From the IMG/VR virus record IMGVR_UViG_2690316049_000001, positions 1 through 9,686 of that record: a DNA stretch of 9,686 nucleotides; one strand, 5' to 3'. Shown here piece after piece: positions 1 through 9,686 of this stretch. A model generated the notes under the pieces. The model was not told the DNA's origin and searched no databases. It saw only the letters and a program-made list of their open reading frames with translations. How positions within the stretch are numbered: position 1 is the first letter of the stretch; each line of letters opens with the position of its first letter. Position numbers and translations under genes: made by a program. Source of the DNA: a virus (lineage: Duplodnaviria > Heunggongvirae > Uroviricota > Caudoviricetes).

Positions 1-37
1 GCGAAGGTCGTAGGTTCGACTCCTATTATCGGCACCA
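1..37 (+). tRNA. thrW: 3' end of a tRNA gene (T-arm, acceptor 3' strand, encoded CCA), probably tRNA-Thr; truncated by the window start; prophage attachment side
   Basis: Positions 1-37 read gcgaaggtcgtaGGTTCGACTCCtattatcggcaCCA: a T-loop TTCGACT flanked by a 5-bp T-stem, a 7-nt acceptor 3' strand and CCA. The anticodon is outside the window, so the Thr assignment rests on recalled similarity to the thrW 3' end used as a P22-type attB. A tyrosine integrase converges on it from 52. Confidence 0.7.
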
Positions 38-51
38 TTTAAATCAATAAG

Positions 52-1215
52 TTACACATCATTAGTACCTTCCTTATTTTTTGACTGGGACAAATTTGGG
101 ACCGATGGGTTCAGGATCGAGTCTATTTGCCGTGCGTGTTCGGTAAGGTGATTAGGTGCAAGGTGAGCATATCGACGAACCATTTCGATAGACTCCCAGC
201 CTCCCATTTCCTGTAACACTGACAACGGGACTCCGGCTTGAACCAGCCAACTTGCCCAGGTGTGTCTCAAGTCGTGAAATCTGAAATCATCAATACCAGC
301 CCGTCTCAGCGCCGCTTTCCAGGCTGTGTTTGCGTCATACCGCATCTTCCTTACTGTTGGCGCTTTCGTTCCGTCTGGTTTGGTACAGCTTTCCTTGTAC
401 ACAAATACCCAACGGTGATGATTCCCGATTTGTTTTTTCAAAACGCGACATGCAGTATCATTCAGCGCAACGCCGATTGCGCGGTTTGATTTACTCTCTT
501 CTGGGTTTATCCATGCCACCCGGCGCTGCATATCTATTTGTTGCCATTCAAGGTTGATGATGTTCGAGCGTCTTAAGCCTGTTGCCAGTGCAAATTCAAC
601 AACAGACTTTAATGGCTCCGGACATTCATCAATCAGCCTTTGTGCTTCATGGGGCTCCAGCCAGCGGATCCGTTTATTCTTTGGTTGAGGCACTTTAATA
701 ATTGGTGCCTTATCCAGCATTTTCCATTCACGCTCTGCGGCTCTTAGTAGGGCCTTTATAAATGAAAGATGCGTAGCCTTCGTTGCAACGGACGCTGGTT
801 TTGGCGTGTATTCTGGAACAGGTTTCCCTTTTTTTCTGCATGCTTCTGCCCTGAGTTTCCAGTTTTCCTCATGACGCCGGTTCGTCATTTTCTGCATTGC
901 TGAATAAATTTTTGATTCAGTAATGTCTCTTAGTTGCATTCCTGCGAAATGTTGAAGCCAGAATCCGATCCGGCTTTTGTCATCGTCCAGTGATTTTTTA
1001 TGTGCTTTCTCTTCAAGCCACCTGACACACGCTTCCTCGAACGTTATATCAGGTATTTCACCAAGTTTGCTGACCCGCCATGCTTCAGCCTTTAGCTTGT
1101 CATGGAGTTCTGTCGCCTGCCTTTTGTCCTTTGTTCCAAGAGACTGTTTAAATCTTTTACCGTTCGGCAATGTGAAACTGGCGTACCATATTTCACCTCT
1201 GCGGAAGAGTGACAT
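52..1215 (-). CDS. int: Tyrosine site-specific integrase (P22-type)
   Basis: 387-aa ORF. C-terminal catalytic signature is visible in the translation ([11 protein letters not shown] ... MVRRYAHL, i.e. H-x-x-R and the Tyr nucleophile). N-terminus [31 protein letters not shown] matches my recollection of P22-family Int. SD GAGGA lies 6 nt upstream of the ATG at 1215. Position is immediately next to the tRNA 3' end. Confidence 0.93.
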
Positions 1216-1442
1216 TTTCTTTCCTCTGTTATGCCATCACCCGCGCTCACCTGGACAGTATGCAGCGGAGACTGAAGAGCCGCAATGCAGGCTTGTCGTG
1301 TTGTGAGGTAAGGAGATTTATTCTTAGTGGGATCTTTGCGTGTTGCCTGAAGACGCCCTGTGCGTATCCAGTTAATGGCAGTCGGTCTGGATATCTTGAG
1401 AAAATGACAGGCCTCATCGAGTGTGAGGCTGTATGGCTCCAT
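1092..1442 (-). CDS. xis: Excisionase / Xis-type HTH protein
   Basis: Internal start [33 protein letters not shown] is an excisionase/AlpA-type HTH. SD GAGGTG lies 6 nt upstream of the ATG at 1442..1440. This ATG overlaps the stop of the upstream gene (TAATG). The listed upstream extension to 1526 has no RBS. The 3' end overlaps the int start by 124 nt in a different frame. Confidence 0.8.
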
Positions 1443-1786
1443 TATTTCACCTCTTGCTGTGACATTGTTGAAAAATGGATACCAGCTCGTTGCTGCCAGA
1501 CGATCCAACCGAGAGTCATATCCCATGCCATGTATTCGTTATCGCCGTTTTTTGCTCTCCGACGATCGACTGTTTTACCGAAACGCTTTTCCATAAATAA
1601 TTCATAGGCTGCGCGTTCATCTGGCTCAACTTCCAGAGATGCCAGTGCAATCCGTGCCAGTTCTAAATCATTTTCAAGCTCAGCGCGAATCTCAGCGAAT
1701 GCACTCTGTGTTAAGGCGAACTCAATGCTCTGCACTTTATTCCGTGCGCGCTCAAGCAGTGCATGGTAGTTAATTTCGGTTGTCAT
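1442..1786 (-). CDS. Hypothetical early-left phage protein (114 aa)
   Basis: Complete ORF with SD GAGG upstream. Its ATG overlaps the stop of the upstream PAPS-reductase-like gene (ATGA) and its stop overlaps the xis start, giving a translationally coupled chain. No recognisable motif. Confidence 0.65.
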   Translation of the reverse strand: MTTEINYHALLERARNKVQSIEFALTQSAFAEIRAELENDLELARIALASLEVEPDERAAYELFMEKRFGKTVDRRRAKNGDNEYMAWDMTLGWIVWQQRAGIHFSTMSQQEVK

Positions 1787-2661
1787 ACCCCTACCTCTTT
1801 GAATTCCAATTCCAATTGATCACCCCAGATTTCACATGACTCTGAACACGAGCCGGTATCGAATCGCCTGGCCTGTACCATCGCCTGATACAAATTTCTG
1901 TAGTCGCTGTTGGCAGACATTCTGGCAATTCCGTCAAGCGTCAGGTGACCACGGTACATAATGTCTTTACCTGTTCTGCGATGACCATCCCTGACGTGTT
2001 TGCCTGTAACCAGCTCATTAAAAACTCGCATCAGACCTGGTTCGTCTTTACATGCAAGCCCCAGCTTTTGCGTTGACTTTTTGATGCAGAAAACACAGTT
2101 CCCGAGATGCTCCGGGATTTGCAAATCAAAAGGTTGTTTTCGCCACCACCGGATAACATCCGACTTATCAAAATCTGACAGCTCGGCAAGATACCGGACG
2201 CCCGATTTCGGTTTCAGCCTACGGGGTTCGTCTGCACGAATACCCAGCCATGTGATGTAATTACCTCGCCCGAAATGGTTATCGCAGTATTTTGTGAAAG
2301 GGATGAGTTTTAGCCTATCAGTACAGAGCGCGCCGCCGATGTATGGCGTGCCGTACTTTTTAACCATGTCCATAAACGGTTTAAGCACCGGCATTCGTGT
2401 CTGAATATCCTTTGGCTCCCATTCTGTATAACCATTTGGCTGCCCAAGCTCAGGATTTATATCGACCTGTAACACAGTTAGTGGTATGTCCCAGAACTTC
2501 ACAACCTCCCGGATAAAGCGGTATGTCAGCGGATGTTCGCAACCGGTATCCATAAAGATGTAGCAGACGTTATTGCCAGCCTTTCTTTGTTCTTCCATCA
2601 GGTGAACAAGATATGCGGATGTTCTCCCGCCAGAAAAACTAACTACATGAGTTATGCACAT
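1783..2661 (-). CDS. PP-loop ATP pyrophosphatase, PAPS-reductase-like family protein
   Basis: Chosen start MCITHVVSFSGGRTSAY at 2661 carries the PP-loop motif SGGxTS near the N-terminus. Cys pairs in the C-terminal part (CVFC, CSESC). The listed ORF extends 39 codons further upstream into the preceding gene; the internal ATG was chosen because the PP-loop normally sits at the N-terminus. The start overlaps the upstream gene stop by 10 nt. Confidence 0.78.
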   Translation of the reverse strand: MCITHVVSFSGGRTSAYLVHLMEEQRKAGNNVCYIFMDTGCEHPLTYRFIREVVKFWDIPLTVLQVDINPELGQPNGYTEWEPKDIQTRMPVLKPFMDMVKKYGTPYIGGALCTDRLKLIPFTKYCDNHFGRGNYITWLGIRADEPRRLKPKSGVRYLAELSDFDKSDVIRWWRKQPFDLQIPEHLGNCVFCIKKSTQKLGLACKDEPGLMRVFNELVTGKHVRDGHRRTGKDIMYRGHLTLDGIARMSANSDYRNLYQAMVQARRFDTGSCSESCEIWGDQLELEFKEVGV

Positions 2662-3188
2662 TTGCGTAATTCCGATAACTCGTTGAAGCGTTCCATAAAC
2701 ATCCCGTAGGCATGGCCCGGTGCCAGTGGAATAACTTTGAACATCTCTGTTGCCGGGATACCTTCCAGTACAGGCCATAAAGAGCCATCATCAAGCCCGA
2801 GATCACGGCGTTCGGTTGCCAGCATGATGAGATCGGCATATTTCACGGGCGTGCTCATAACCGGGGGCAACTCGTATTTCTCACGGATTACTGCATCTAT
2901 TTTTTCTTCCATCCGTTTATAGTCAGGAAGAAGGCGTTTCAGTGGCGCCGGGATGTCCTGGCAATACGCTTCTGTTGCATCATGCATTAACGCTTCAAAA
3001 GCAAATTCCTGCGGTACCAGTTGGCTGCAAAGCACCGCATGTTGGGCAACGCTGTAGAAATGTGAAAGATGCCCTGCAAAGCGACAGATATTTGAAAGAG
3101 AAACCGCGATATCGTTAATAACGATGTCGTCTTTATTTATCCTGTCATAATAAAAATGCTTCCCGGAAAAAGTTTTAATAAATGACAT
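2652..3188 (-). CDS. HD-domain phosphohydrolase (YfdR-like 5'-deoxynucleotidase family)
   Basis: 178 aa from the ATG at 3188, with SD GGAGAA upstream. HD motif visible (ALMHDATEAY) with an upstream His (FAGHLSHF). Length and architecture match my recollection of the cryptic-prophage protein YfdR of E. coli; this is unverified. Confidence 0.78.
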   Translation of the reverse strand: MSFIKTFSGKHFYYDRINKDDIVINDIAVSLSNICRFAGHLSHFYSVAQHAVLCSQLVPQEFAFEALMHDATEAYCQDIPAPLKRLLPDYKRMEEKIDAVIREKYELPPVMSTPVKYADLIMLATERRDLGLDDGSLWPVLEGIPATEMFKVIPLAPGHAYGMFMERFNELSELRKCA

Positions 3189-3281
3189 TTTGTTCTCCAC
3201 GTATATGCGCTGCACCGCGCTGAATTCTGGTAAAAGGAAGCCCTCACCATCCGGCGATTATTGAGTCAATTACGTTTCCAT

Positions 3282-3303
3282 AAATGCCCCCGCAGGGGCA
3301 TTT
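3282..3303 (-). terminator. Stable GC hairpin between the DUF2303-like and HD genes (possible attenuator or intra-operon terminator)
   Basis: Perfect palindrome aaatgcccc-cgca-ggggcattt: 9-bp stem, 4-nt loop, with flanking A/T runs. Function not determinable from sequence. Confidence 0.35.
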
Positions 3304-3315
3304 GCAGTAATGAAA

Positions 3316-4140
3316 TCAGGCGGTGAAAGTACCAATAAAGGTTTCTACTTTGCTGTCCTTGAATTTCTCAACAAGCAGATCACGAAATTCGTTAGCCATT
3401 TCTTCCTGCACTGCTTCCAGCTGAATAATGCGCAGAACCAGTACAGGACGATCGCCAGTGATAATGCTGAGGCGTAATTTAAACGGACGTTCTTTCAGGC
3501 CTTCAAACGGAACGCATTTAAATTCAAATGCCACAGGCATAATATCTTTGGTCTTCGCTTCGACAGACTCCATCAGGGAGCGTTTGCCGCTGAAGTCATT
3601 ATCTTCAAAATCAGCGGTCTGGTTTGCTTCAATCGTGATTTTACGGACAGCCGCAGCCGCTTTTGTTGCCTGAATAGCGTCACCATTAGCATCAAAGCCC
3701 ACAAGATAGTCTGCCCAGTCTTCAATCCATTCTGCTAGTGACTTCTGGGAGTTACGCTCGCCGTTAATAGACAACAGAGCAGAGAACGGTGCTGTCTTTT
3801 TCAGTTTGAGTGTGGCGGTGTTATCTGCGTGACCTGGTTCATCAATAGTACCCAGGTTAAGCACACTGACGGCTCGCATATTATCGGCATCGATAAAGCA
3901 GCGGGTGCCTTCATCTGCAAGATCTTTAGAGTAACGGGTAAAGTCATCGATGCTGGCAGTGGAAAGCGCACCACGGAAACGGAAGCGATTTAAATTAAAT
4001 TTTTCCAGATCATGAATGCGGAAATTCTCAGGCAATGCCACAGCATCGGCACCAATCTTACTGATAATTTCATTAACACCCTGAGCAGAAATAAGGGCAT
4101 GGATTTGATTAATTGCGGTTGCGTCTAAGTTCTGAGACAT
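3316..4140 (-). CDS. DUF2303 / YfdQ-like prophage protein (274 aa)
   Basis: Complete ORF with SD GAGGA 7 nt upstream of the ATG at 4140. Size and position, directly upstream of the HD-domain gene, match the YfdQ-YfdR arrangement recalled from E. coli cryptic prophage CPS-53. Family assignment is from memory. Confidence 0.75.
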
Positions 4141-4205
4141 AATAAGTCCTCACTATATAAAGATATTCAGTGATGAGATAAATAATCGGTTAATTAAGAA
4201 CGATA

Positions 4206-4568
4206 TTAATGACCTGCTGCGCGGAGTTTTCCGTCAGGTTCACCGGCAAGAGTCAGTAATTGTCCCTGGTCTTCCTGCAGAATAGTCAGGCGACCACCGC
4301 GATTGACATACATCGGCGTTTCGGTGGTGTCTTCTTCGGAAATTTTCCCGCGGTTAGTCGGGCGAACATATGAGAGTTTGTGTTTGATTTTCACACGGTT
4401 CTCATCAAATGGTTCGATTTCCAGGTTGAGTGAGACCTTACCTTTGGTTTTCGTGTTCATCACACCGGAAGCGACTTCACTGAGAACTGCGCCGATTTTG
4501 GTTTCAAATACGCCGCCGTCCAGCTCCCCAATAAATGCCTGCACATCAGTACTGCGTTCGCTAGCCAT
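4206..4568 (-). CDS. Hypothetical phage protein (120 aa), first gene of the leftward operon
   Basis: Internal start MASERSTDVQAF at 4568 has a strong SD (AGGAG, 7-nt spacing). The 106-codon upstream extension in the ORF track is Arg/Cys-rich translation of GC-rich DNA and has no RBS. Confidence 0.7.
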   Translation of the reverse strand: MASERSTDVQAFIGELDGGVFETKIGAVLSEVASGVMNTKTKGKVSLNLEIEPFDENRVKIKHKLSYVRPTNRGKISEEDTTETPMYVNRGGRLTILQEDQGQLLTLAGEPDGKLRAAGH

Positions 4569-4588
4569 TTTTCTGCTCCTAATCATAT

Positions 4589-4751
4589 CGACCCTGCAAG
4601 GTCGGTTGGTTTCTCCACAAAACAGAGAAGAACACCTGCGGTGGCAGCCGCCCGGATGGATTGGGTTATGAGCCCGTCGTCCGGTGATGTTCTTCTCTGT
4701 TTTGTAAAAAGAGCGGTACCAGCCGGAAGCAAGTGTACAAACTGGTACCGC
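4589..4751. other. GC-rich structured non-coding segment: three consecutive hairpins, including an 18-bp perfect inverted repeat
   Basis: Hairpin A: cgacc/ggtcg (4589-4604). Hairpin B: ACAAAACAGAGAAGAACA (4617-4634) pairs perfectly with TGTTCTTCTCTGTTTTGT (4688-4705), enclosing a 53-nt GC-rich loop with sub-stems (gcgg/ccgc, ccgga/tccgg, ggg/ccc). Hairpin C: 10-bp stem gcggtaccag/ctggtaccgc (4713-4722 with 4742-4751). No credible ORF on either strand. Confidence 0.4.
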
Positions 4752-4977
4752 GAGGACTACACACAGCATAAAGTTGTGGTGCCGGGTGCCTCCCGGTGCC
4801 TGGCGAAGGTTGCACACCAGGCGGGTGGGTATCCACAGAAGGTCGACTGTCAGCCTCAACCTTAACCCGCGTGCGCTGAGCCGCATTCACCACAACGCTA
4901 AGGATTCTCTCTGGTTGAAAATACTTAGCTGTTATGTGCCTGCTTTTAGCCACATCAGGCGAGGTGGACCTAGTTAT

Positions 4978-5021
4978 TCCCCAACAACAAGGATTTGGTT
5001 AATCTGGATATCCCCAACAAC
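4978..5021 (+). repeat. Two 11-bp direct repeats TCCCCAACAAC spaced 33 bp apart, upstream of the 5038 ORF
   Basis: Exact copies at 4978-4988 and 5011-5021, each preceded by AT. A 33-bp spacing is about three helical turns, typical for a direct-repeat transcription-factor binding pair. Confidence 0.5.
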
Positions 5022-5037
5022 TAGCTGAGTATTCAAC

Positions 5038-5559
5038 GTGATAGCTGAACTGTCTGCGGCTATGGCCGCTATAAAGGAGACTGCCGGTCTTGCTAAGGTT
5101 ATTAATGACGCGAAAACGGATGCAGAAGTTAAAGCTGCAACCATTGAACTCCAGAACAAACTAATCACGCTTCAGGCAGAATGCTTCTCTCTTGGCGATG
5201 CGATCCGCCTTCGTGATGAAGAGGTGATGCATCTCAAAGCAAAAATTGCAGAGTTTGAAGATTTTTGTGCCAAGGTAGAAGGATATGTCCTTGATCAGCT
5301 TGACTCTGGTGCTTTTGTTTACTCTAAAAATGAAATTGTGAGTGGAAAAGAAATAACTGTGCATCTGTGCCCACTTTGTTATTCCAAAAATATAAAATCG
5401 ATACTTCATCCGCTTCCAGTAGGTAAAACTTCTCATTTTCTTACAAGCCGTTGCCTTCACTGTGAAAATAAATTTCTTATGGAAAAAAATCCGATGTACG
5501 AACGACCAAGATCATTACGTGAGTTGGGGCGAGATCTGAATTCGCCTTGGATTCCTTAA
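5038..5559 (+). CDS. Hypothetical coiled-coil plus C4 zinc-ribbon protein (moron-like, convergent with cI)
   Basis: 173 codons from GTG 5038 (alternative ATG at 5062). N-terminal half is predicted helical (IELQNKLITLQAECFSLGDAIRLRDEEVMHLKAKIAEFEDF). C-terminal part has Cys-x2-Cys, 24 residues, Cys-x2-Cys (HLCPLC ... CLHC). Strongly AT-rich, unlike its neighbours. Followed by an intrinsic terminator. The start codon is uncertain because neither candidate has a strong SD. Confidence 0.6.
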   Translation: MIAELSAAMAAIKETAGLAKVINDAKTDAEVKAATIELQNKLITLQAECFSLGDAIRLRDEEVMHLKAKIAEFEDFCAKVEGYVLDQLDSGAFVYSKNEIVSGKEITVHLCPLCYSKNIKSILHPLPVGKTSHFLTSRCLHCENKFLMEKNPMYERPRSLRELGRDLNSPWIP

Positions 5560-5601
5560 ATCTTGCATTGGTTGGATGATACCCAGATTGTTAAAGAGCT
5601 A

Positions 5602-5624
5602 AGCGTCCTGTAGGGCGCTTTTTT
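5602..5624 (+). terminator. Rho-independent terminator downstream of the 5038-5559 ORF
   Basis: agcgtcc-tgta-gggcgct: 7-bp stem with one G.U pair and a 4-nt loop, followed by a run of six T (5619-5624). Confidence 0.6.
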
Positions 5625-5702
5625 GTTGCTAACGAATCATCCTGGACTTCATATGCCCCAGGCGGCTACTTCGTGGGCGTCCTGCCTGTTCGTTATCTTT
5701 GA

Positions 5703-5731
5703 TATAAAATCTAACTTAACTTAGTTGTCAT
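5703..5731 (-). promoter_or_regulatory. Candidate leftward (pL-like) promoter with an operator-like 14-mer (OL-a, CTAACTTAACTTAG, 5711-5724) in its spacer
   Basis: On the minus strand: -35 ATGACA (5731..5726), spacer, weak -10 TTTATA/TATATC (about 5708..5701). The 14-mer CTAACTTAACTTAG matches the CTAA-N5-CTTAG motif found twice in the cI-cro intergenic region. Lies just downstream of the cI stop, where OL/pL sits in lambdoid phages. Confidence 0.3.
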
Positions 5732-5789
5732 GGCAAGAGAAAACACCAAACTTTTCTTAGTTCGGTGCCTTAGTTAGAGAAGAGAGGCC

Positions 5790-6416
5790 TTAGAGTTCGT
5801 ATTGAACTCCTTTGACTACACCAATGATAAGGCAATTACCATTGATAGGGATGTTGGGATACCGAGGATTTAATGGTACTAAAAACTTTTGAGGGCCATC
5901 GATGACTAATTTTTTTACTGTAGCTTCGTTTGTTCCATCAAGTCGAGCGATGACTATTTTTCCATGACGAGGTTCTGCATCTGGATCTACAATCACTGTT
6001 GCGCCTTCTGGTATTGTTGGGAGGCCATTAGGGTTAGTCATGGAGTCACCTTTAACCTCTAATGCAAATGAGTTATCACCAACCTTTAATGATGTATCTA
6101 CCCACTTGTCCACTTCACTAAACACTTCTGCTGCCCTGCACTCAGTAAACTGCCCAGCCTGAACCCACGATATTACAGGAACTCTGCGCATGTTTGTGAC
6201 GAGTTTGCCTTCAAACTCAGCACCATAAAGAATGTAATCTATTGACGTATTGAAGAACTTCGCTAATTTCGAAAGTGCCTCCCCACCAGGGGTATTGATG
6301 TCTTTCTCCCAGTACCCCACAGCAACGTCGCTTACTCCACAAAATTTACCCAATTCTTTCTGGGACGTTCTGGTAACTCTTCTCAGAGCTTTTATACGCT
6401 GACCAACCGTTTCCAT
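5790..6416 (-). CDS. cI: CI-like prophage repressor (HTH_XRE plus S24 LexA-type autopeptidase domain)
   Basis: 208 aa. N-terminal HTH (TSQKELGKFCGVSDVAVGYWEKD). Ala-Gly cleavage site (WVQAGQF). S24 catalytic motifs visible (GDSM with the Ser, downstream Lys in TVKKL). Divergent from the cro-like gene. Confidence 0.9.
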   Translation of the reverse strand: METVGQRIKALRRVTRTSQKELGKFCGVSDVAVGYWEKDINTPGGEALSKLAKFFNTSIDYILYGAEFEGKLVTNMRRVPVISWVQAGQFTECRAAEVFSEVDKWVDTSLKVGDNSFALEVKGDSMTNPNGLPTIPEGATVIVDPDAEPRHGKIVIARLDGTNEATVKKLVIDGPQKFLVPLNPRYPNIPINGNCLIIGVVKGVQYEL

Positions 6417-6428
6417 AGGAGCACCATT

Positions 6429-6491
6429 TCTTTAATTGCTAAGTAATCTTAGTTTTTATTGACCAAAGATAGATTTGTAATTAGCATCTAA
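6429..6491. promoter_or_regulatory. OR-like operator/promoter region: two 14-bp CTAA-N5-CTTAG sites flanking a candidate pR
   Basis: OR-a CTAAGTAATCTTAG (6429-6442, palindromic outer arms) and OR-b CTAATAAAACTTAG (6478-6491). Between them: -35 TTGACC (6449-6454), 17-nt spacer, -10 TAGCAT (6472-6477). OR-b overlaps the -10 and start-site region. SD GGAGGG precedes the cro ATG at 6514. Confidence 0.5.
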
Positions 6492-6513
6492 TAAAACTTA
6501 GTTTGGAGGGCGT

Positions 6514-6714
6514 ATGACAACTGACGATATCGAAAGCTACTTCGGCAGTATTGAGAAAGTTGCTGCTTTTTTCGGCATAACAACTGAAGCCGTTTATCAG
6601 TGGCGAAACCGTCCGGGCCAGTTAATTCCAAAAGGACGTGCAGCAGAAGCTGCATATAGAACTTGCGGACGGTTGCCATTTAAACCTGAGCTTTATGAAA
6701 AATCTAATGGATAA
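6514..6714 (+). CDS. cro: Cro-like small HTH regulator (YdaS/Cro family)
   Basis: 66 aa, HTH (IEKVAAFFGITTEAVYQWRN), strong SD, divergent from the cI-like gene across the operator region. Confidence 0.85.
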   Translation: MTTDDIESYFGSIEKVAAFFGITTEAVYQWRNRPGQLIPKGRAAEAAYRTCGRLPFKPELYEKSNG

Positions 6715-7309
6715 ATCGATTAACAGAAACCACAGAACGATGAGGCTAACCGTGGGTAAGCATCACTGGAAAGTAGAAAAACAGCCTGAGTGGTACGTGA
6801 AAGCTGTCAGAAAAACTATCGCAGCGTTGCCGGGGGGTTACGCTGAAGCAGCTGACTGGCTGGATGTAACAGAGAACGCATTATTTAACCGCCTTCGTGC
6901 CGATGGCGATCAGATTTTCCCGCTGGGATGGGCAATGATTTTGCAACGTGCTGGTGGAACTCACTTCATTGCTGACGCTGTGGCGCAGTCTGCAAATGGC
7001 GTCTTTGTGTCTCTTCCTGACGTCGAGGATGTGGACAACGCCGATATTAACCAGCGTCTGCTGGAAGTCATTGAACAGATCGGCAGTTATTCAAAACAGA
7101 TTCGTTCAGCAATCGAAGACGGTGTAGTGGAACCGCATGAGAAGACAGCAATTAACGACGAGCTGTATCTCTCAATTTCGAAGCTGCAGGAGCATGCAGC
7201 ACTTGTCTACAAAATTTTTTGCATTTCAGAAAGTAATGACGCCCGCGAGTGTGCAGCTCCGGGCGTCGTGGCGTCGATTGCTTCTGGTTGTGGAGAAACT
7301 AACGCATGA
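6695..7309 (+). CDS. Early regulatory protein in the CII position (possibly CII/YdaT-like); start uncertain
   Basis: Long ORF directly after cro. Candidate starts are ATG 6695, 6707 or 6740, none with a strong SD; the listed GTG 6638 has an SD only 1 nt away. The stop overlaps the next ATG (ATGA at 7306-7309). Family assignment is positional and from weak recollection. Confidence 0.55.
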
Positions 7310-7644
7310 ACAGTTTAACAACACACTACCGTCGCTCGCAACTGATTGCGCTTCCTGTACCGGGTGGAAAAGCGAAGGTGGAGTATTGCTATGCAGTAAA
7401 TGTACCAGGTGACAGGGAAATTGTAACCCACAGCTTTGCAGAGTGGGCTGTGGGTGATTTCAACCGGCAGAAGGAGACAGTCCTTTGCGACAAGTTAACC
7501 GCTGGTTCAAAGATCACTACGGAGTGCCCGTCAGAGTCATTCGTTGGGAACCGGAAACACAACGGGTTATCTACCTCCGCGAAGGCTATGAGCATGAGTG
7601 CTTCAGCCCGCTCGAACAGTTTCGTCGTAAATTCAGGGAAATAG
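7306..7644 (+). CDS. Hypothetical protein; possible frameshifted gene (see findings)
   Basis: ATG coupled to the upstream stop (ATGA). The first ~58 residues look protein-like. The C-terminal half in this frame is low-complexity, while the -1 frame (7458-7664) encodes a protein-like sequence ending [54 protein letters not shown]. Confidence 0.45.
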
Positions 7645-7653
7645 AGGTCGGTC

Positions 7654-9686
7654 ATGAGCACTAAATTAACCGGCTATGTATGGGATGGTTGCGCTGCATC
7701 AGGCATGAAGTTATCCAGCGTGGCAATTATGGCCCGCCTGGCTGATTTCAGTAATGACGAAGGTGTGTGCTGGCCATCAATTGAAACCATTGCCCGTCAG
7801 ATTGGCGCGGGGATGAGTACCGTCAGAACGGCTATCGCACGGCTGGAAGCAGAAGGCTGGTTAACGCGTAAGGCGCGTCGCCAGGGTAACAGCGCACAGG
7901 CGGCAGCAGACTCACAAACTGCATCGGCAAACTCCGCGACAGCAGCCAAAAAATCAGAAACCAACGCGAAAAATAGCGAGGCAGCAGCAAAGAGCAGCGA
8001 AACAAACGCTAAAGCCAGCGAAACTAATGCTAAATCCAGTGAAACAAACGCGGCGAAATCTGCGGCGGACGCACTTAATTATCGCAACCAGGCGCAATTA
8101 ATTGTTGGCGATAATATCGGTCTTGGCTCAGCCCCGCGTGATTGTCCTGATATTTCCGGCAACCCATCAGGGTATATCGGATTTATGCGCATTATGAGTA
8201 ATGCAAAAGGATTTCCATCGATTGCATCCGGTGAAAGCAGTCTTACGGGGTTTATTAGTCAGGTAGATGGAACACCAGCGTATACAGGTGTATTTCAGGG
8301 ATGGGCTACGCGCTCGCTTTATACTTATCGCTGGAATCCGACAATAGGCCCGCAATGGACACGCCACGCAAGAAAAGATGAGGTTATCCGATTTCAGCGT
8401 TCAAGCGACACAAGAACCATCATTTTATCTACTGACGTTCAGGCGGACGGCTGTTACTTACAGGTTGATGCTGACGGTCAGTGGGGCGCATTTAACCCTA
8501 AAGCTGGTAGATGGCAACCGCTCGCAGTTGCGCAAGGTGGCACAGGGGCGAATGATGCAAGTACAGCGCGCTCTAAACTTGAAGTCATGTTTGAAGCAAA
8601 AACTGGCCTTGATGCGAATACGAACTTAAACGATATAAAAGGTACTACAGCCGGTTTTTATTACCAACCAATGTCTGCCAACGCAAAGCCAGAACTAAAT
8701 TACCCGATACAGCTTGCTGGTGCATTGTTAGTGCAAAGAACTGGTGCTAATGGTAGTGATGGTTGTATCCAGAGCTATTTTGTATATAACAATTCATCAA
8801 TTCTTTATAGAAGGATATATACCAGCACACAAGGTTGGAGTGTATGGAAAAAAATAGTATTAACAGAAAGAATTGAAGAAGGCGAATCGACTACTTACGT
8901 TTATTCGAATTACTCACCATCAGCGCCACGACTTCAGGTGTCAACATCTGGATTGTGGGGTTGCCATAACGGATCGTCATGGGTTCCATTACCTATTGGA
9001 CAAGGAGGCACTAATGCGGCAACTGTTGATGGTGCCAGAACGAATCTTGGCTTAGGTAGGAACAACAGCCCTCAACTTAACAGTCTATTTCTTGATAGAT
9101 ATAGTGATTCGACCAATACATACACATCTAGTGGAATTCTCCATACAAGACTGTTAGCAACTGACAGCACTGTGCGTCTTGGTGCTGATATGTATGTTGA
9201 AACTTTATCAAATGAGCCAGGTCAATTAACAATAAGGTTTACATACGATGGTTCAACTGGTGCTTCAAAATATCTAAACCTTAATTCAGAAGGTAATTTA
9301 ATTGTAGATAGTGCGATACTGAAATCAACGGTTGAAAAACCTTTACAAATAAGGAGCGCTAACCCAGCAATAAGATTTAATGAAACAGATCGCCCGGCTA
9401 ACACGCCTACTTATACTCTCATTGCTAATGCTGGCGACTGGTTTATTCAGAAACGCGATTATGATGATGCCGGAAGCGTTAGTAACGCAATTGCATATAA
9501 TTTCGCAAACGACAGAATTGATGTGCAGAATCTTAAAGCGTCTGGGTTAATTACAGCTAACTCAGGAATTGCAACATTAACAGGTCATGACTGGAACGCT
9601 CAGCATACTGATAACGTCGACAAATTTAGATCAATTGCAGGCAGTACAAACGGCCCGGCAGGCTCTATGGTTCTTGGCGGCATTCA
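7654..9686 (+). CDS. In-frame chimeric ORF: N-terminal HTH domain (replication-initiator-like) fused to a side-tail-fibre body; 3' end beyond the window
   Basis: Translated by hand: ATG 7654 with SD GAGG, no stop codon to 9686 (at least 677 codons). Residues 1-79 carry an HTH (PSIETIARQIGAGMSTVRTAIARLEAEGWLTRKARRQGN). From about residue 80 the sequence is tail-fibre-like: KSETNAKNSE / SSETNAKASETNAKSSETNA repeats, then two modules with the fibre motif QGGTGANDASTARSKL and QGGTNAATVDGARTNLGLG. Absent from the ORF track only because it has no stop in the window. Confidence 0.75.
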   Translation, partial: MSTKLTGYVWDGCAASGMKLSSVAIMARLADFSNDEGVCWPSIETIARQIGAGMSTVRTAIARLEAEGWLTRKARRQGNSAQAAADSQTASANSATAAKKSETNAKNSEAAAKSSETNAKASETNAKSSETNAAKSAADALNYRNQAQLIVGDNIGLGSAPRDCPDISGNPSGYIGFMRIMSNAKGFPSIASGESSLTGFISQVDGTPAYTGVFQGWATRSLYTYRWNPTIGPQWTRHARKDEVIRFQRSSDTRTIILSTDVQADGCYLQVDADGQWGAFNPKAGRWQPLAVAQGGTGANDASTARSKLEVMFEAKTGLDANTNLNDIKGTTAGFYYQPMSANAKPELNYPIQLAGALLVQRTGANGSDGCIQSYFVYNNSSILYRRIYTSTQGWSVWKKIVLTERIEEGESTTYVYSNYSPSAPRLQVSTSGLWGCHNGSSWVPLPIGQGGTNAATVDGARTNLGLGRNNSPQLNSLFLDRYSDSTNTYTSSGILHTRLLATDSTVRLGADMYVETLSNEPGQLTIRFTYDGSTGASKYLNLNSEGNLIVDSAILKSTVEKPLQIRSANPAIRFNETDRPANTPTYTLIANAGDWFIQKRDYDDAGSVSNAIAYNFANDRIDVQNLKASGLITANSGIATLTGHDWNAQHTDNVDKFRSIAGSTNGPAGSMVLGGI
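7948..8058 (+). repeat. Imperfect tandem repeats encoding (K/A/S)SETNA(K) heptad-like units inside the tail-fibre portion
   Basis: Four consecutive units at nucleotide level (tcagaaaccaacgcgaaa, agcgaaacaaacgctaaa, agcgaaactaatgctaaa, agtgaaacaaacgcggcgaaa). Such repeats are typical of the proximal shaft of lambda Stf-like fibres. Confidence 0.6.

Follow-up and report, generated by a model that had tools for sequence, protein, structure and literature searches.

Do three consecutive leftward genes in a prophage make up one functional unit? The question is raised by a stretch of 9,686 nucleotides from a virus of the Caudoviricetes (IMG/VR record IMGVR_UViG_2690316049_000001, positions 1 to 9,686), here called the window. 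Its minus strand carries a gene for a PP-loop protein, a gene for an HD phosphohydrolase and a DUF2303 gene; the DUF2303 gene starts at 4140 and the PP-loop gene stops at 1783. The preliminary description treated the three as enzyme-like genes of an accessory operon, the PP-loop protein resembling 3′-phosphoadenosine 5′-phosphosulfate (PAPS) reductases, and proposed a nucleotide-pool or DNA-modification module that might serve anti-defence or host takeover. We consider it likely that the genes belong to two independent elements with separate roles, both lying in the early operon that runs leftward (pL-type) in a defective prophage. One is a yfdP-yfdQ-yfdR block that may act on host replication, and the other is a cassette encoding NinC, which may act on phage DNA. 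Genes were called from the open reading frames (ORFs) of the window and the RefSeq annotation of an identical Escherichia coli locus, and the main ones are as follows.

1783-2661, minus strand: ninC-like gene for the PP-loop protein (292 amino acids; start as in RefSeq and in homologues)
2652-3188, minus strand: yfdR, the HD gene (178 amino acids; PHROG 318; named yfdR in RefSeq)
3316-4140, minus strand: yfdQ, the DUF2303 gene (274 amino acids; Pfam DUF2303)
4206-4568, minus strand: yfdP (120 amino acids; PHROG 204), outside the three genes first described

The limits and strand given earlier for the leftward operon stand; the gene string is longer than three genes, running unbroken on the minus strand through yfdP, yfdQ, yfdR, the ninC-like gene, a yfdT-like gene (orf114), xis and int. 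Neighboring genes overlap by 10 nucleotides (yfdR/ninC), 4 nucleotides (ninC/orf114) and 1 nucleotide (orf114/xis). Pfam and PHROG searches recovered all three family calls (PP-loop/PAPS-reductase-like, HD and DUF2303), and direct translation confirmed the SGGRTS and HD motifs.

The yfdP-yfdQ-yfdR block

The DUF2303 gene has a near-constant partner. We sampled 71 yfdQ loci, one genome per species, with YfdQ identity from 99% down to 40%, and inspected 6 kb on either side. yfdP is present in 69 of the 71, directly upstream of yfdQ in every row, and yfdR is found downstream in 57, mostly immediately adjacent. Stx2a phages and Vibrio phage 44E38.1 have the pair but not yfdR, and in the latter a gene for a single-stranded DNA-binding protein (SSB) follows; yfdP directly precedes the DUF2303 gene in both, with 59% identity in the Stx2a phage VT2phi_272 and 39% in the Vibrio phage. 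Because the pair is near-universal in the sample and also occurs without yfdR, the conserved core is yfdP-yfdQ, and yfdR is a frequent third member.

The block matches that of the K-12 prophage CPS-53 (KpLE1; yfdP-Q-R-S-T), of SfV (orf28-33) and of SfIV (gp30-34), with the same order and orientation relative to xis and int. DNA homology of 96.6-97.2% extends over 2654-4587 against K-12 and over 2654-5021 against SfIV, and the encoded proteins are 99.2% (YfdP), 98.9% (YfdQ) and 97.2% (YfdR, five substitutions) identical to their K-12 counterparts. CPS-53 differs from the window in its integration site, argW there and thrW here.

YfdQ matches Pfam DUF2303 (PF10065) at 2e-92 over profile positions 2-269 of 269, with 309.7 bits against a cut-off of 26.6. 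The description of DUF2303 as enzyme-like is unsupported, as we found neither an enzyme signature in YfdQ nor an enzyme fold in its AlphaFold2 (AF2) model. This model (predicted local distance difference test, pLDDT, of 77) has no whole-fold match in the fold libraries, which lack PDB entry 9o7m. That entry, titled ‘YfdQ Protein’, matches YfdQ by sequence (1.6e-44) and contains 36 chains of one sequence, a count that hints at a large homo-oligomer. Sequence searches with YfdP and YfdR gave no match to 9o7m, and no paper citing the code was found. A DUF2303 protein of a Burkholderia phage has been reported to be virion-associated. We predict a joint, non-enzymatic role for YfdP and YfdQ, probably in an oligomeric complex.

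YfdR is assigned to PHROG 318 (‘dNMP phosphatase’) at 1.2e-109. It scores just under the Pfam YfbR-like cut-off (24.6 versus 25.9 bits) and reaches 19.9 versus 122 in NCBIfam. The solved structure 2gz4 (Atu1052) is matched at 8.7e-12, with H50, H68-D69 and D78 aligned, and the dyad can be read directly from the sequence.

2979-2984, minus strand: HD dyad H68-D69 of YfdR (direct translation)

YfdR resembles the HD 5′-deoxynucleotidases YfbR of E. coli and Atu1052 in fold and in metal ligands, and the NCBI Prokaryotic Genome Annotation Pipeline (PGAP) and PHROG give it the same name. It departs from YfbR in its much lower affinity for nucleotides and in binding DnaA, both described for the K-12 protein. 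PMC4776307 describes K-12 YfdR as a structural homologue of YfbR with a much lower nucleotide affinity, and the purified protein binds domain I of DnaA via Phe46, in moderate competition with DiaA and DnaB (Noguchi & Katayama 2016, PMC4776307). The YfdR-DnaA interaction mentioned in the preliminary description is thus correct. Multicopy K-12 yfdQ and yfdR, together with either yfdS or yfdT, suppressed over-initiation and inhibited initiation at oriC (PMC4776307). We predict that the yfdP-yfdQ-yfdR block would slow host replication after induction or infection and thereby contribute to host takeover.

It is possible, though unlikely, that yfdP-yfdQ, with or without yfdR, is an accessory of phage recombination or DNA metabolism and not an inhibitor of host replication, with a role in handling single-stranded DNA or in modulating a nuclease. 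The position of the pair matches the lambda red region. In VT2phi_272 it comes directly after gam-RecT-exo-SSB, and in Vibrio phage 44E38.1 it has an RNase T-like exonuclease on one side and SSB on the other, with a two-gene recombinase adjoining; exonuclease and SSB neighbors in two phage groups leave a DNA-metabolism role open. K-12 yfdQ mutants were reported to be weakly sensitive to methyl methanesulfonate and H2O2 (PMC4776307). Against this, an SSB or RecT homologue was found within 6 kb in none of the 71 species loci, and the YfdQ model shows no nuclease, SSB or annealing-protein fold. The yfbR/yfdQ/yfdP cluster is described as common in lambdoid early-left operons and of unknown function, and it occurs with and without complete Rec modules, so that a recombinase role was judged unlikely and the cluster probably not a recombination module (PMC12315714).

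NinC as a separate cassette

Judged by its sequence, the PP-loop gene is homologous to lambda ninC. The two proteins are 78-79% identical over their full length (79% over residues 2-287 by tblastn, 78% in an alignment with lambda NinC, or Orf290). They are similar in size and have in common the PP-loop and all six conserved cysteines. The gene most likely starts at 2661 (MCITHVV..., 292 amino acids) and not with the long ORF from 2778, because the RefSeq call and the homologue starts agree. Its annotated name is ‘PAPS reductase family’. Pfam PAPS_reduct (PF01507) matches the N-terminal part only, at 1.8e-8 (35 bits versus a cut-off of 22.5), and PHROG 33262 and 424 (‘PAPS reductase’) match at 2e-89 and 8e-89. 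Lambda NinC is non-essential and called ‘poorly understood’, and our literature search found no function assigned to it beyond these two descriptions.

The location of the gene differs between the two genomes. Lambda ninC is flanked by ninB and ninD-G (ninF/G) in the rightward nin region, with no yfdQ or yfdR nearby, and the window copy stands in the leftward operon after yfdR. Homology of the window to SfIV, SfV and K-12 CPS-53 is seen everywhere except at 1652-2653, where blastn places breakpoints against SfIV and CPS-53 at 1651/1652 and 2653/2654. SfIV and K-12 have yfdS (DUF551) and the 5′ end of yfdT at this place, and the window has ninC and a new N-terminus for orf114. The latter is 83% identical to K-12 YfdT over its C-terminal 81 amino acids only.

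1442-1786, minus strand: orf114, yfdT-like gene with a replaced N-terminus (PHROG 660)
1652-2653, no strand assigned: replacement segment of 1,002 bp with ninC and the first ~45 codons of orf114 (blastn breakpoints)

Homology to the Stx2a phage VT2phi_272 is limited to 1774-2663, which is the ninC ORF itself. In this phage (L005, 4450-4893) the position of yfdR, between DUF2303 and ninC, is filled by a gene for a 147-amino-acid protein that is not of the HD type and belongs to no Pfam family.

The slot after yfdR is variable even among close relatives. Among 80 contigs with near-identical yfdQ, it holds yfdS in 56 and ninC in 8 according to the layout table (7 of 80 in a coverage-filtered recount). 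A separate sample of 80 NinC loci placed the gene after yfdR in 10, in the Stx2a arrangement in 2, in the lambda-type order ninB-ninC-ninG in about 20 and in fusions to Dam in 9, the rest being other contexts. The 10 loci with ninC after yfdR are all 93-100% identical E. coli prophages, and this layout therefore reflects few independent events. As judged from the breakpoints and these contexts, ninC moves as a single-gene cassette that was recombined into a variable slot usually occupied by yfdS.

These distributions bear on the proposal of a three-gene module, in which YfdR might, for example, supply or clear nucleotides for a modification made by NinC, YfdQ being an accessory. In its favor, the genes follow one another in the same orientation, yfdR and ninC overlap, Stx2a phages have ninC one gene downstream of a divergent yfdP-yfdQ pair, and the early operon is where takeover and anti-defence genes cluster. 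However, none of the 71 species-level yfdQ loci has ninC in the 6 kb on either flank, and in lambda and many other phages it lies in the nin region without yfdQ or yfdR. Its position after yfdR is confined to the near-identical E. coli prophages, and the gene between yfdQ and ninC in Stx2a phages does not encode an HD protein. The three families also have very different distributions in the phage collection, with 561 records for NinC, 327 for HD and 184 for DUF2303 and different host spectra. We regard a single module as improbable: ninC fails to co-occur with yfdQ across species and is a minority occupant of its slot in close relatives. Operon packing, and not a shared pathway, would account for the overlap between the end of yfdR and the beginning of ninC.

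A possible role for NinC in DNA modification

We predict that NinC uses ATP. The AF2 model has a pLDDT of 86 and is confident except for the C-terminal tail, where residues 269-292 fall below 50 and are predicted to be flexible. CysH and adenosine 5′-phosphosulfate (APS) reductase are the nearest solved folds, followed by the [4Fe-4S] protein LarE, CysD, TtuA and GMP synthetase. SxSGGRxS, DTGxE and Cys113, 126, 189, 192, 272 and 276 all occur in the window protein and do not vary among 23-27 homologues (at least 51% identity), and S8, S10, G11, G12, R13 and S15 are invariant across 27 NinC homologues.

2617-2634, minus strand: PP-loop motif SGGRTS (direct translation)
2086-2097, minus strand: CxxC motif CVFC, C189 and C192 (direct translation; invariant in alignments)
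1834-1848, minus strand: CSESC, C272xxxC276, in the C-terminal tail (direct translation; invariant in alignments)

The SGGxxS loop is canonical and six cysteines are invariant, with one pair on the flexible tail. We infer that NinC is an adenylating enzyme and not a true PAPS reductase.

Relatives of NinC are repeatedly joined to DNA adenine methyltransferases. Searching 1.84 billion representatives with a profile yielded 3,075 relatives. Seven of the best 150 have at least 450 amino acids, and in six of these seven the NinC-type part is fused to an N6-adenine DNA methyltransferase. Both domain orders are represented, as are two families of methyltransferase (PF05869 and PF02086). True NinC-Dam fusions are present in 9 of the 80 NinC loci, and Dam lies 24 nucleotides upstream of ninC in 3 more (fusion and adjacency records P0241-P0243, P0249, P0250 and P0271; L195-L198, L201-L204, L236, L173, L177 and L187).

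Simple proximity to Dam was considered as a separate association and rejected. A Dam-like gene lies within 6 kb of 16 of the 80 NinC loci, but control yfdQ loci also have such genes nearby (28 of 71 and 34 of 80), and for this reason the neighborhood was dropped as evidence, leaving the true fusions and the 24-nucleotide adjacency. Dam-like genes are so common near yfdQ that any naive count of Dam nearby is inflated; in the 71 species-level loci they are on the opposite strand, several kb upstream. We also observed that the gene in 28 of these 71 loci is of the T1 type, located ~4-6 kb upstream of yfdQ and apparently part of the rightward operon, and that its K-12 counterpart is the fragment yfdM.

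Among the defence-family models of PADLOC, NinC comes closest to PP-loop enzymes of phosphorothioate DNA modification. SspD is its best match (2.9e-14), though only residues 5-152 are aligned, to positions 2-125 of the 277-position profile; BrxP and then DndC (0.015-0.018) come next. NinC has a PAPS_reduct-type PP-loop fold and conserved cysteines in common with DndC, SspD and BrxP. It differs in that no DndA/D/E or SspA/B/C partners were found among the window ORFs or in family scans.

An experimental connection comes from Vibrio phage 44E38.1. Its protein p0018 is a NinC-Dam fusion whose NinC domain shares 54-55% identity with the window protein (96% of the query aligned), and moving p0018 together with p0019 into a sensitive phage allowed growth on a Dnd-carrying host (Piel et al., bioRxiv 10.1101/2021.05.05.442762). 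PMC13551039 cites this result as a phage PAPS reductase promoting Dnd evasion. The Vibrio cassette differs from the window gene, which has no methyltransferase domain; p0018 bears a T1-type Dam domain at its C-terminus and acts jointly with p0019.

NinC is a probable stand-alone DNA-modification or anti-restriction enzyme, on the strength of the fusions and the anti-Dnd homologue. The earlier suggestion of DNA modification or anti-defence is in this respect plausible for the PP-loop gene alone, and it does not hold for a three-gene module. NinC would act on DNA together with adenine methylation, provided in this prophage by host Dam, and may shield phage DNA against the phosphorothioate type (Dnd/Ssp) of modification-dependent restriction. 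More tentatively, and with considerable doubt, the whole NinC family including lambda Orf290 may consist of stand-alone, ATP-dependent DNA modifiers with cysteine- or Fe-S-based chemistry, acting at or near sites of N6-adenine methylation (by fused, adjacent or host Dam) and allowing escape from Dnd/Ssp or other modification-dependent restriction. The link to deazaguanine modification drawn in the preliminary description is not supported, as it rests on a different PP-loop family; the one in the deazaguanine pathway is QueC.

Several observations weigh against two independent elements with these roles. The K-12 genes were deleted without any phenotype, and the authors concede that what is seen at multicopy could be an artefact (PMC4776307). 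The minimal K-12 set requires yfdS or yfdT; the window has no yfdS, and its yfdT-like orf114 has a new N-terminus. For NinC, tblastn searches of the whole window with the Dam domain and p0019 gave nothing below an E-value of 0.3, and because the Vibrio cassette consists of two genes, one of them fused to Dam, and the window has no counterpart of Dam or p0019, the anti-Dnd effect may need these parts. Binding of metal or Fe-S by the NinC cysteines is only something we infer. Finally, two divergent groups of phages, SfV-like and Stx2a-like, have ninC after the yfdP-yfdQ block, and this placement, with the 10-nucleotide overlap with yfdR, leaves some room for a functional link.

A prophage-borne anti-phage defence that protects the lysogen is very unlikely. 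The block is retained intact in a decayed prophage, HD and PP-loop domains are known from defence systems, and NinC weakly matches the SspD, BrxP and DndC models. PADLOC, on the other side, gave no match for YfdQ or YfdP and only a partial match for YfdR (0.0036), Dnd and Ssp partner genes are absent from the window, and the block is located in a repressor-controlled lytic operon and is not a lysogen-expressed moron. It is scarcely credible that the PP-loop gene is an auxiliary metabolic gene encoding a true CysH-like PAPS/APS reductase that boosts host sulfur assimilation during infection: the database names, PF01507 and the nearest solved folds point to it, but only the first ~65-100 residues (the N-terminal nucleotide-binding half) align to CysH/APS reductase, the score for the NCBIfam CysH equivalog PRK02090 is 21.2 bits versus a cut-off of 154, NinC keeps the glycine-rich SGGRTS loop where CysH aligns SSSFG, its C-terminus reads GSCSESCE (the CysH catalytic motif is ECGLH), and the family is recurrently fused to DNA adenine methyltransferases and has a homologue linked by experiment to Dnd evasion.

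Prophage context and significance

The element is a defective lambdoid prophage remnant of the SfV/SfIV/CPS-53 type, integrated at thrW. The window begins with the 3′ end of this tRNA-Thr gene (1-37), next to proA. After cI, cro and a cII-like gene, the gene content passes straight into a tail-fibre gene, which marks the prophage as a remnant. At the window end (7485-9686) a DUF4222 gene runs directly into this tail-fibre gene, itself truncated, so that the replication, head and most tail genes are deleted. The immunity region and the early-left genes are intact.

Identical sequences (100% matches) occur in E. coli chromosomes, flanked by tRNA-Thr/proA and the truncated tail-fibre gene, and at least 80% of the window is present in 23 E. 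coli genomes. For 11 of the 12 genomes that match best, the alignment of the window is split into two pieces spanning ~14.7 kb, so that ~5 kb of extra DNA interrupts the region; the annotation of these genomes mentions a LEM-3-like GIY-YIG protein.

The leftward gene string closes with int and a HTH_17 excisionase-like gene. Between yfdQ and yfdR there is a gap of 127 nucleotides, the only sizeable one in the string, and it contains a hairpin that lies 13 nucleotides past the yfdQ stop.

52-1170, minus strand: integrase (Pfam Phage_integrase, 3.2e-48; RefSeq)
1092-1442, minus strand: HTH_17 excisionase-like gene, xis (HTH_17, 3e-8; PHROG 2907 excisionase; RefSeq)
3282-3303, minus strand: G+C-rich hairpin AAAUGCCCC-UGCG-GGGGCAUUU, the sole stem in the centroid fold

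The hairpin lacks a long U run, and the terminator scan did not call it. It could serve as an attenuator or terminator, setting yfdP-yfdQ apart from yfdR and the genes that follow. A promoter scan showed no enrichment (4 found versus 8.6 expected), and pL was not assigned.

The ORF upstream of yfdP (4583-4893, minus strand) is a frameshifted pseudogene in RefSeq, and the long ORF of 226 amino acids from 4886 probably does not represent true yfdP. On the opposite strand, between cI and the early-left genes, lies a gene for a protein of 173 amino acids (5038-5559, plus strand; PHROG 1244, unknown function) with two CxxC pairs and a low G+C content (~0.40). It is followed by a terminator-like hairpin (5601-5620, plus strand), and its position is typical of a lysogen-expressed moron.

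The genes discussed here are already known and named in RefSeq, and their arrangement is ordinary lambdoid mosaicism. The three-gene operon as first described is therefore of little consequence: it amounts to a familiar E. coli prophage block that has undergone a commonplace mosaic exchange. Around DUF2303, it is yfdP-yfdQ that merits study as a unit, and not yfdQ with the PP-loop enzyme. For NinC, the comparison ties a classic lambda gene to adenine methyltransferase fusions, to SspD/DndC-type enzymes and to one published anti-Dnd experiment, which makes the proposed role testable in lambda itself. If true, it would mean that temperate phages carry a widespread, unrecognized anti-restriction chemistry.

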